A DNA stretch of 64,000 nucleotides, taken from NCBI GenBank assembly GCA_963774265.1, contig CAVZDU010000003.1:64001-128000 (forward strand), written 5' to 3'. Both the position numbers and the translations under genes were made by a program. The notes under the pieces were generated by a model. It worked only from the letters and a program-made list of their open reading frames with translations, was not told the DNA's origin and did no database searches. Each line of letters begins with the position of its first letter. Position 1 is the stretch's first letter. Of the stretch, positions 22,260 to 24,208 are shown piece by piece. This stretch comes from an uncultured Chloroflexia bacterium. Its GTDB lineage: Bacteria > Chloroflexota > Anaerolineae > CG2-30-64-16.

Positions 22260-24208
22260 GGCACAACCTGAATGCGGGTCACCTCACTCCCAGTCGCGTC
22301 GACGATATGTACTGCACAGGCCATGCACGGGTCGAAGGAGTGGACTGTGCGCAGAATCTCGACCGGTTGCTCCGGATTGTGCACGGGCGTGCCGATGAGC
22401 GACTGCTCCCAGGGTCCTCGCTGCCCGGCTGAATCGCGCGGTGAGCCGTTCCATACCGTCGCTACCACCGCCTGGTAGTTTTCGATCGCGCCGTTCTTGA
22501 TCCGTATCCAGTGGCCCAGCGCACCGCGAGGGGCTTCAGTTGCGCCCCAACCTGTGGCCTCTGTGGGCCAGGTGGACGGTAGCCACTTGCTGTTGTTGTG
22601 GATCGCAAGGTTGCCGGTATTCATGTTGGTTTCGAGTTGGCTGATCCACGACGAGAGCTGTTCGGCCAGAACGACCGTCTCCACGCCACGCGCGGCGACG
22701 CGACCGATCGTGGAAAACAGGCTTGGGGCGGGCAGCCCCAGCTTGGACAGCAATCCGTCAACGAGGTCGCGCACACGCCCATGCCCTGCCGCGTAGGCGA
22801 CAGCCATGCGCGCCAGCGGTCCGACTTCCATGGGCATCTCGTTGTAACGCGGCGCCTTCAGCCACGAATACTTCCCTTCGATGTCAAGGTAGTCGTAGTC
22901 CTGCTGCGGGCCGGTGTAGTTCGGCTGGGTTTGGCCCTGCGATGGGTGGAGGCCGACACCGTCACCCCCCGCATAACTGTACCACGAGCGGGTCACGTAC
23001 TCCTTGATCTGGTTCTGATCTAGCGGCTGCGGCGGAGCGGCTAGGTTGTTGCCCGTGACAATGCCGCGCGGCAGGTAAAACGAACCTACGCTGCCTGAAG
23101 CATCCTGCGGAAAGTCGCCGAACGACAGGTAGTTGCCCGCGGTCCCGCCCAGGCTTGCCCACTCCGGGTACAACGAGGCGATGAGTTGCAGATCGGGGTA
23201 GTAGACACGCGATACGAAGTCCAGTGCATAGGCCGCGTGGCTTTTGAGCTGGCTGATGCGGACGGCGTTGATGGCCGCGTCGCTGCTTGGGTCCACTGGG
23301 ATCGCCATCCCGCCCACCAGGTAGGTTTGTGGATGGGGGTTCTTGCCGCCCAGGATGGCGTGGGTCTTGATGACCTCACGCTGCCAGTCTAGGGCTTCGA
23401 GGTAGTGCGCCACAGCCAGCAGGTTGCCTTCCGGAGGCAGCTTGTACGCGGGATGTCCCCAGTAGGCGTTCGAAAAGATGCCGAGCTGGCCGCTATCGAC
23501 GAATGACCGCAACCGGGCCTGCACGGAAGCGAAGTAATCGTGGCTGTTGTTATGCCAATCGGAGATGGATCGCTGCAGGTTGCTGGTGGCTGCCGGGTCA
23601 GCCGAGAGCGCACTGACCACGTCCACCCAATCGAGCGCATGCAGGTGGTAGAAGTGGATCACGTGATCCTGGACGAACTGCATGCCTTCCAGAAGGTTGC
23701 GGATGATACGGGCGTTATCAGGTACAGTGATGCCTAAGGCATCTTCAACTGCTCGCACGGAGCAGATAGCATGCACCGTCGTTCAGACGCCGCAGATGCG
23801 CTGGGTGAAGGCCCAGGCATCGCGAGGATCCCTCCCTTTCATCACCAGTTCCATACCGCGAAAACTGGTCCCCGAGCTCCAGGCGTCAGTCACCTGGCCG
23901 CCCTGCACCTGCACCTCGATGCGCAGGTGACCCTCGATGCGCGTGATGGGATCGATCACCAGCCGCTGGGCGCTGCTTGGAGTTGGCGATGGTGTCGGGC
24001 TGGCCGTCGCGATTGGCGCCGCGGCAGTTGCGCTCGGTGTCCCTGTCGGAGTAACCGTGGCCGGGGTTGCCGTGGCTCCGGGTTGCGGTGTGCTGGTCTT
24101 GGTCGGCGTGCTTGTTCGCGTTGGAGTCTGAGTCGGCCTGCGCTGCGCTGCATCATCATCACTGGAGTCTCCATCACCGGAGACCAATGGCATATATATC
24201 TTAGGCAT
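22256..24208 (-). CDS. Group 1 [NiFe]-hydrogenase large subunit, read through in-frame TGA at 23783-23785 (candidate Sec), with N-terminal Pro/Thr extension
   Basis: ORFs 23783-24208 and 22256-23776 share one frame: [54 protein letters not shown] + cleavable tail. Confidence 0.9.
23749..23765 (-). promoter_or_regulatory. Candidate bacterial SECIS hairpin
   Basis: mRNA CUGCUC-CGUGC-GAGCAG starts 18 nt after UGA; loop 23 nt downstream with GU at loop positions 2-3. Confidence 0.6.

Follow-up and report, generated by a model that had tools for sequence, protein, structure and literature searches.

Within a 64,000-nucleotide (nt) stretch of DNA from an uncultured Chloroflexia bacterium (contig CAVZDU010000003.1, positions 64,001 to 128,000; hereafter, the window), the gene for the large subunit of a [NiFe]-hydrogenase is interrupted by one in-frame TGA codon, and our comparative analyses suggest that this TGA (23785..23783) is very probably a selenocysteine (Sec) codon in a functional, exported hydrogenase of Group 1. 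The gene lies on the minus strand (22256..24208), a detail unstated in the earlier note on this DNA, and consists of 650 codons (24208..22259) followed by a TGA stop codon (22258..22256). The codons at the site are CGC ATC TGC GGC GTC TGA ACG ACG GTG CAT (RICGV*TTVH), just as the earlier note had read them, with the sole in-frame TGA among the 650 codons falling on the second cysteine (Cys) of the RxCGxC motif; residue 142 of the product, the second ligand of what would be RICGVU, is in all likelihood selenocysteine. Since the gene's own terminator is TGA, this codon is not generally reassigned in the organism. The idea of Sec at the bridging N-terminal ligand, put forward in the earlier note, is supported by the Sec machinery of the genome, by homologs with TGA at the same codon, by a covarying hairpin downstream, and by independent contigs.

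The second N-terminal Cys of [NiFe]-hydrogenases bridges nickel and iron. The N-terminal ligands of the window protein align with Cys65 and Cys68 of the Desulfovibrio gigas enzyme (1frv_B), and the UGA (23783..23785, minus strand) corresponds to Cys68; the first, terminal Cys is encoded by TGC (23792..23794, minus strand), a codon that is TGA in many relatives with Sec at both N-terminal ligands (UxxU, as opposed to CxxU for Sec at the second ligand alone and CxxC for Cys at both). The C-terminal ligand motif, DPCMACAVH (22307..22333, minus strand), has TGC at both ligand positions, in agreement with the all-Cys DPCMAC described previously. Because residue 142 stands in place of the N-terminal bridging Cys, selenium at this site would bridge nickel and iron, and a bridging role is given for the second residue of the CXXU motif by Takano et al. 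2026 (PMC13582414), a paper that we cite here and below from part of its text.

Recurrence of the UGA at this codon is one line of evidence. The 41 related genomes yielded 13 near-full-length orthologous loci, the window's own included; five carry TGA at the second-Cys codon, two of these five also having TGA at the first (RI[U]GV[U]), and the other eight have Cys at both N-terminal positions. We scanned a collection of species-representative genomes with a degenerate nucleotide pattern for QRx[C/U]GV-TGA-T[T/S]VH, which matched at least 119 stretches. We fetched 80 of these loci (L052-L131), and the in-frame reading was correct in all 80, comprising 44 CxxU and 36 UxxU genes. By record label, 30 belong to Chloroflexota (16 CxxU, 14 UxxU), 30 to Nitrospirota (11 CxxU, 19 UxxU), nine to Thermodesulfobacteriota, two to Spirochaetota, and one each to Nitrospinota and Rokubacteria (all CxxU in these four), one to Methylomirabilota (UxxU), and six are unplaced (four CxxU, two UxxU). 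In an even sample of 401 genomes from the window's class (two of them, G362 and G404, flagged as unpublished and neither with a match), the Sec pattern was found in 49 genomes (53 matches, by our own count 17 CxxU and 36 UxxU) and the matching Cys pattern in 39 (42 matches), while the reversed pattern used as a control gave no match in any of the 401. The position of the TGA on a metal-ligand codon, its presence at the same codon in 80 of 80 fetched loci, and the empty control together indicate more than chance. The C-terminal part is present in 69 of the 85 distinct Sec-type loci, the other 16 being cut by the locus end, and all 69 have DPCxxCxxH with Cys and no further in-frame stop. The comparison of TGA with Cys codons among homologs that the earlier note had proposed thus shows TGA to be widespread.

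Independent DNA also carries the codon. Contigs from three other studies cover it without difference: one matches the window exactly over 23678-23828, the second has 2 differences over 23656-23806, and the third, about 90% identical, has 22 differences over 23619-23852, all outside the TGA and the stem-loop. These sequences are contigs rather than raw reads, which show that the TGA is present and could miss minor variants; among public sequencing runs, none was listed with more than 21% of the sampled words. This agreement bears on the possibility that the TGA arose by nonsense mutation or by an error of assembly, so that the gene would be dead or the base wrong. Some observations would fit such an origin: the assembly contains at least one apparent frameshift (in selA, see below), the protein catalog holds the window product only as a 475-amino-acid (aa) piece and a 92%-identical relative as a 500-aa piece, and relatives of about 80% identity are full length in the catalog and presumably Cys-type, although their motifs were not read, with one locus from the same genus (L024) confirmed as Cys-type. 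However, the same codon is TGA throughout the fetched loci from several phyla, the 69 frames that reach the C terminus are otherwise open, the downstream hairpin covaries only in TGA-bearing genes, and the three studies agree at the codon; we therefore consider mutation or error highly improbable. The fragmentary catalog entry is also what the earlier note had forecast in saying that gene callers would break the gene.

Further support for the UGA as a Sec codon comes from the RNA immediately downstream. A candidate Sec insertion sequence (SECIS), present as the earlier note had described it, lies at 23749..23765 on the minus strand and consists of a 6-bp stem, CUGCUC/GAGCAG (arms 23765-23760 and 23754-23749), and a CGUGC loop (23759-23755). 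The spacer between the UGA and the stem is 17 nt, with the stem beginning at the 18th nt, and the loop begins 23 nt after the UGA; bacterial SECIS models place the loop 16-37 nt from the UGA. We examined the hairpin in 57 Sec-type sequences (55 distinct) that had been selected on the basis of a downstream protein motif that does not overlap the hairpin. In the 55 distinct rows, 94.8% of stem cells are paired, and 39 cells have double-sided changes in three pairs, compensatory changes thus affecting three of the six pairs (AU 21, UA 18, GC 8; GC 40, CG 8; CG 49, UA 4). None of 500 shuffles reached the observed pairing or covariation, and sliding the partner by 1-3 columns, as a control, gave 26-61% pairing. 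The same columns in 33 Cys-type rows are 56.6% paired, which equals the shuffle mean (56.2%), and the full stem of six pairs is present in 52 of 85 Sec rows versus 0 of 37 Cys rows. These changes alter the protein: Ser is preceded by Cys, Ser, or Ala, and Ala or Gly is encoded by the paired codon. Without a supplied structure, RNAalifold predicted exactly the 6-bp helix and nothing else. The second loop position is G in all 57 Sec-type rows, consistent with the rule of a G at the first or second loop position that is given for SECIS elements in the available text of Takano et al. 2026 (PMC13582414).

Other Sec-type genes carry hairpins of different sequence. In a second clade, the hairpin is GCACUG-GCUU-CAGUGC, at a distance of 12 nt from the UGA; 14 Sec rows, and not a single Cys row, have it in perfect form. 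In the remaining 18 Sec rows, the hairpin is shifted or bulged and has a GGU or CGGGC loop. The first UGA of UxxU relatives precedes the second by 9 nt and is separated from the loop by 32 nt, which, like the 23 nt of the second UGA, is within the 16-37 nt of bacterial SECIS models, and one hairpin may serve both UGAs; a single hairpin for both has been proposed for Group 4 enzymes in the portion of Takano et al. 2026 (PMC13582414) on which we draw. The earlier note had also pointed to a second hairpin in the window, GAUGCC/UUA/GGCAUC (23729..23743, minus strand); it is present at 23743-23729 and is not conserved. We rejected it as part of the SECIS, as it falls outside the RNAalifold consensus and has 5 changes within it in the contig of about 90% identity, and it probably lies outside the element. 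In the Cys-type locus from the same genus (L024 of genome G007; 2968-3027, minus strand), four of the six hairpin columns are paired and RNAfold gives a shifted 9-bp helix, which may be a relic or a precursor of a SECIS.

The genome (5.5 Mb in 10 contigs, 84% complete) encodes the machinery for Sec, namely, selA, selB, selD, and tRNA-Sec (selC), all of which the earlier note had suggested looking for. The selA match scores 506 bits (G000:C1:1423592-1424922, plus strand, outside the window), and selB is a 647-aa open frame scoring above its cutoff. tRNA-Sec is the single hit above the gathering score in Rfam (73.2 bits) and is also typed as SeC(tca) by ARAGORN, which found 50 tRNAs in the genome and a UCA anticodon in this one only. 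The selD gene (G000:C1:464620-465552, plus strand, outside the window) has an in-frame TGA of its own, in SACAG[U]ASK at the canonical Sec/Cys position, and on this basis is predicted to be a second selenoprotein gene in the genome; no obvious likeness was seen between its SECIS and the hydrogenase hairpin, and a Sec-type formate dehydrogenase was looked for in the genome and not found. An ARAGORN call of a 92-nt tRNA-Pyl (cta) at G000:C1:1112899-1112990 is probably spurious, as no Rfam tRNA match was obtained there at an E value of ≤0.01. Across the class sample, selA scores above the cutoff in 347 of 401 genomes; in our own cross-tabulation (E ≤ 1e-60), it is present in 47 of the 49 Sec-pattern genomes versus 28 of the 39 Cys-pattern genomes, a comparison for which no statistical test was made because related genomes are not independent.

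Several observations weigh against the interpretation of the TGA as a Sec codon or reduce the force of individual results. The plain folding energy of the segment 13-48 nt downstream of the codon fails to distinguish the two types, averaging −10.3 kcal/mol in Sec-type sequences (n = 84) versus −11.2 kcal/mol in the GC-richer Cys-type sequences (n = 33; p = 0.12), and the window's 63 nt folded alone adopt an alternative minimum-energy fold that lacks the hairpin (z-score of −1.96). The register of the hairpin was chosen from Sec-type sequences, and for this reason the case rests on covariation and the Cys control rather than on stability. No Rfam family matched positions 23500-24000 at an E value of ≤10. 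The selA gene has a frameshift near its 3′ end, with one frame extending to approximately residue 388 and another thereafter, which could be either an indel introduced by the assembly or a genuine frameshift in this essential Sec gene, and 2 of the 49 Sec-pattern genomes, G190 (90% complete) and G178 (93% complete), have no selA at an E value of ≤1e-60. No RNA run was among the listed runs with the stretch. The codon, the covarying hairpin, the Sec machinery, and the intact frames of many relatives are observed here, and selenium in the protein is predicted from them; we infer the insertion of Sec in preference to any other residue, the activity of the enzyme, and the effect of selenium on its catalysis. 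Finally, given that the genome is only 84% complete, a second UGA-reading tRNA, for example one charged with Cys, could have been missed.

This last point matters for another explanation, in which the UGA is read through the SECIS and SelB, but as Cys or a mixture by a UGA-reading tRNA charged with Cys (tRNA-ReC), and the mature enzyme would be an ordinary all-Cys hydrogenase. A caveat of this kind for UGA-containing hydrogenase genes is raised in the part of Takano et al. 2026 (PMC13582414) available to us, where tRNA-ReC is described as more frequent in UXXU genomes. The tRNA complement of the present genome argues in the other direction, since the only UCA tRNA among the 50 is typed as SeC and coincides with a single Rfam tRNA-Sec hit above the gathering score, and both selA and a Sec-containing selD are present; we regard Cys insertion as unlikely, with a small chance of being correct. 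It is also conceivable that translation stops at the UGA and restarts at a GTG two codons on (23776), giving a two-piece subunit like archaeal VhuA/VhuU. A 506-aa open reading frame (ORF) does begin with this GTG directly after the TGA. Nevertheless, because the stop replaces the ligand residue itself, the two pieces would lack the bridging ligand, and UxxU relatives would lose two ligands; the conserved, covarying hairpin would furthermore be left without a role, and we judge a split subunit to be extremely improbable.

If the TGA is a Sec codon, as we favor, SelB carrying Sec-tRNA(Sec) would bind the 6-bp hairpin during translation and deliver Sec at residue 142, and the ribosome would go on to the stop at 22258..22256. 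The NiFe(CN)2CO cofactor would be given to the precursor by the adjacent Hyp proteins, the precursor would be trimmed after His634 by the downstream HybD-type protease, and the subunit would leave the cytoplasm together with the small subunit that bears the twin-arginine translocation (Tat) signal. In the mature enzyme, selenium would bridge nickel and iron, and the other three ligands would stay cysteine. Maturation by HypCDEF, cleavage at His634, and Tat export are predictions drawn from gene content and established knowledge of Group 1 enzymes.

The assignment to Group 1 comes from the large subunit itself and from its operon. The protein matches PF00374 with 748.2 bits (residues 117-634 against profile positions 1-508 of 508), and its best solved relative is the Allochromatium vinosum enzyme (3myr_B; E = 1.3e-206), followed by Escherichia coli/Salmonella Hyd-1, the Ralstonia enzyme MBH, Desulfovibrio enzymes, and Hyd-2; across residues 80-634, solved Group 1 chains match at E values of 1e-206 to 1e-163. 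Matches to NuoD-type models are confined to residues 92-186, with 36-39 bits, and none of the NCBIfam equivalog cutoffs is reached (612 of 1101 bits; 605 of 969). Alignments to solved chains stop at residue 634, leaving a 16-residue extension beyond it, and His634 is the expected cleavage point. The small subunit (24225..25181, minus strand; TIGR00391, 370 bits) has the twin-arginine signal RRDFLK, and a HyaD/HybD-type maturation endopeptidase is encoded at 21777..22259 (minus strand; TIGR00140, 153 bits versus a cutoff of 151.8). Divergent to the hydrogenase operon, a block of hyp genes spans 26321..31253 on the plus strand: hypF (26321-28774), hypC (28778-29035), hypD (29050-30162), and hypE (30123-31253). 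In profile searches, the small subunit, the protease, HypF, HypC, HypD, and HypE all have intact frames and score above their family cutoffs, which bears out the earlier description of these genes as intact. With the full domain, the ligand motifs, the Tat-signal small subunit, and the protease, the large subunit is, as judged from its sequence and gene neighborhood, a Group 1 uptake-type [NiFe]-hydrogenase. Profile scans of the window proteins recognized no Isp or cytochrome b gene adjoining the operon.

Other features of the locus deserve mention. The large-subunit frame opens about 78 residues ahead of the usual N terminus (23975-24208, minus strand) with a Pro/Thr/Ala-rich, low-complexity segment; leaders of relatives are much shorter (total lengths of 588-631 aa), and either the true start lies further downstream or the segment is an unusual linker on a hitchhiking Tat passenger. 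On the 3′ side of the protease gene (19676-21679, minus strand) are a GAF-domain ORF, a NarQ/LiaS-like histidine kinase, and a NarL-type response regulator, which could be regulators of the hydrogenase operon. An ORF at 25413-26180 (minus strand) has no family match, looks like a wrong frame, and was rejected as a real gene.

We placed the Sec and Cys forms on a tree of 100 full-length rows (38 CxxU, 31 UxxU, and 31 CxxC) from a quick IQ-TREE search under LG+G4 with stop positions treated as gaps. Clade I comprises 22 rows, all CxxU, from Spirochaetota, Desulfobacca, Nitrospirota, Thermodesulfobacteriota, and Nitrospinota, and is nearest to the Hyd-2 model. Clade II comprises 54 rows (31 UxxU, 16 CxxU, and 7 CxxC) from Chloroflexota, Nitrospirota, and Methylomirabilota, and the sister groups, of 5 and 19 rows, are all Cys-type. 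The window protein falls in a well-supported set of four, together with two CxxU rows and the Cys-type protein from the same genus. At least 14 state changes are needed on the tree. Scattered Cys forms within Clade II would fit secondary reversions; Cys-type rows were taken from the class sample only and Sec-type rows from the whole collection, and because of this sampling of the Cys rows, the tree cannot give the direction of change.

Individual genomes show further combinations. Loci L027 and L028 have UGA at both N-terminal ligands (RI[U]GV[U]) and a single downstream hairpin. Four genomes (G152, G157, G281, and G381) have two Sec-type large-subunit genes each, which in G152 are one CxxU and one UxxU, and in three (G021, G157, and G178), a Sec-type and a Cys-type gene stand side by side. 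In a Methylomirabilia metagenome-assembled genome (MAG), the frame upstream of a UxxU large subunit is open, giving 882 codons in all (L057:4197-6842, minus strand), which may indicate a gene fusion on the upstream side or nothing more than an open frame.

Taken together, these results make it likely that uptake hydrogenases of Group 1 bearing selenium at their N-terminal ligands are a large, overlooked natural class, in one clade of which UxxU dominates and nickel would be held by two selenium atoms, one of them bridging to iron. Truncation of the genes by gene callers would explain why the class has gone unrecognized. Work on selenium in hydrogenases has dealt almost exclusively with the terminal C-terminal ligand, a position at which selenium raises activity and oxygen tolerance; our findings suggest that nature also puts it into ordinary uptake hydrogenases of the periplasm, at their Ni-Fe bridge and in many cases at both of the N-terminal ligands. 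If this is true, a natural CxxC/CxxU/UxxU series is available in tractable Group 1 enzymes for assessing the effect of selenium per ligand position, the engineered C79U and C76U variants have natural counterparts, and the frequent switches among the three states, with a shared SECIS, are open to evolutionary study. The genes are carried by anaerobes that abound in sediments, wetlands, and soils, and because Sec-type genes are called as fragments or pseudogenes, both hydrogen-cycling capacity and selenoproteomes would be undercounted. N-terminal-Sec Group 1 hydrogenases would thus be common and offer concrete candidates for biochemistry, and the wider pattern is of more interest than the window gene itself.

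How do these enzymes relate to known selenium-containing hydrogenases? Classical [NiFeSe] enzymes carry their Sec in the C-terminal motif (DPUxxC), at its first position, and there it serves as a terminal nickel ligand. The window enzyme resembles those of Desulfomicrobium baculatum (1CC1) and Desulfovibrio vulgaris Hildenborough (HysAB), of Group 1a, in being a predicted periplasmic two-subunit Ni-Fe enzyme of the same Pfam family with one nickel ligand encoded by UGA and a SECIS directly downstream. In contrast to them, it has DPCMAC and places Sec at the second N-terminal, bridging position, and DPUxxC is absent both from the window protein and from all 69 Sec-type relatives that cover the C-terminal motif. 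It remains below the cutoffs of the NiFeSe models (NF045518, 401.7 bits against 780; NF033181, 541.5 bits against 600), as six Sec-type relatives also remain below every cutoff, and solved [NiFeSe] chains align with it only from residue 256 on (E of approximately 1e-94). With standard Group 1 enzymes (A. vinosum 3MYR and E. coli Hyd-1 and Hyd-2), it shares the ligand motifs, the small-subunit partner, and the protease; these have Cys at all four ligands and lack the Pro/Thr-rich N-terminal extension of about 78 residues.

Further parallels exist in Group 4. As far as the text of Takano et al. (September 2026, PMC13582414) available to us goes, its enzymes share with ours N-terminal CXXU or UXXU motifs, a hairpin whose first two loop positions include G, co-occurring Sec genes, occurrence mostly in MAGs, and truncation by gene callers, and UXXC and UXXU in Group 4 are termed previously unrecognized. 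That set consists of 47 membrane-bound, energy-converting Group 4 sequences with CXXU, UXXC, or UXXU (about 0.2% of the group), whereas the window enzyme is a predicted Tat-exported Group 1 uptake-type hydrogenase of a type frequent in its own class (49 of 401 genomes). The same excerpts cite a 2011 review by Baltazar for N-terminal CXXU in two sequences of Group 1 and one of Group 3, and "purported examples" of a substituted bridging Cys are mentioned in the part of Evans et al. 2021 (PMC8020662) that we draw on. A review of prokaryotic selenoproteomes from May 2026 describes hydrogenases as UxxC only, confined to sulfate reducers and methanogens. No mention of UxxU in Group 1, or of CxxU as a widespread form there, came up in the main texts of the literature searched; the excess of the Sec over the Cys pattern in the class sample (49 versus 39 of 401 genomes) and UxxU in Group 1 appear unreported there. 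The window gene is accordingly not the first of its kind but belongs to an N-terminal-Sec Group 1 type that is already known and barely documented: the natural Se-bridged site proposed in the earlier note is supported, but it is not unprecedented in view of the two Group 1 CXXU sequences just cited.

An engineered enzyme provides a functional comparison. E. coli Hyd-1 C79U has Sec at the equivalent second N-terminal ligand of a Group 1 enzyme and, according to the portion of Evans et al. 2021 (PMC8020662) consulted, oxidizes H2 at 13% of the native rate; its apparent KM for H2 is lower and its activation enthalpy higher, and at 10% O2 hardly any activity is left. This variant shows that the Sec substitution is compatible with maturation and H2 oxidation, and its behavior would, by analogy, be compatible with use by strict anaerobes. 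Unlike the window enzyme, C79U is artificial, having been made by UAG suppression in an O2-tolerant parent, as described in the same part of that paper (Evans et al. 2021, PMC8020662), and the natural enzymes are presumably coadapted to Sec.

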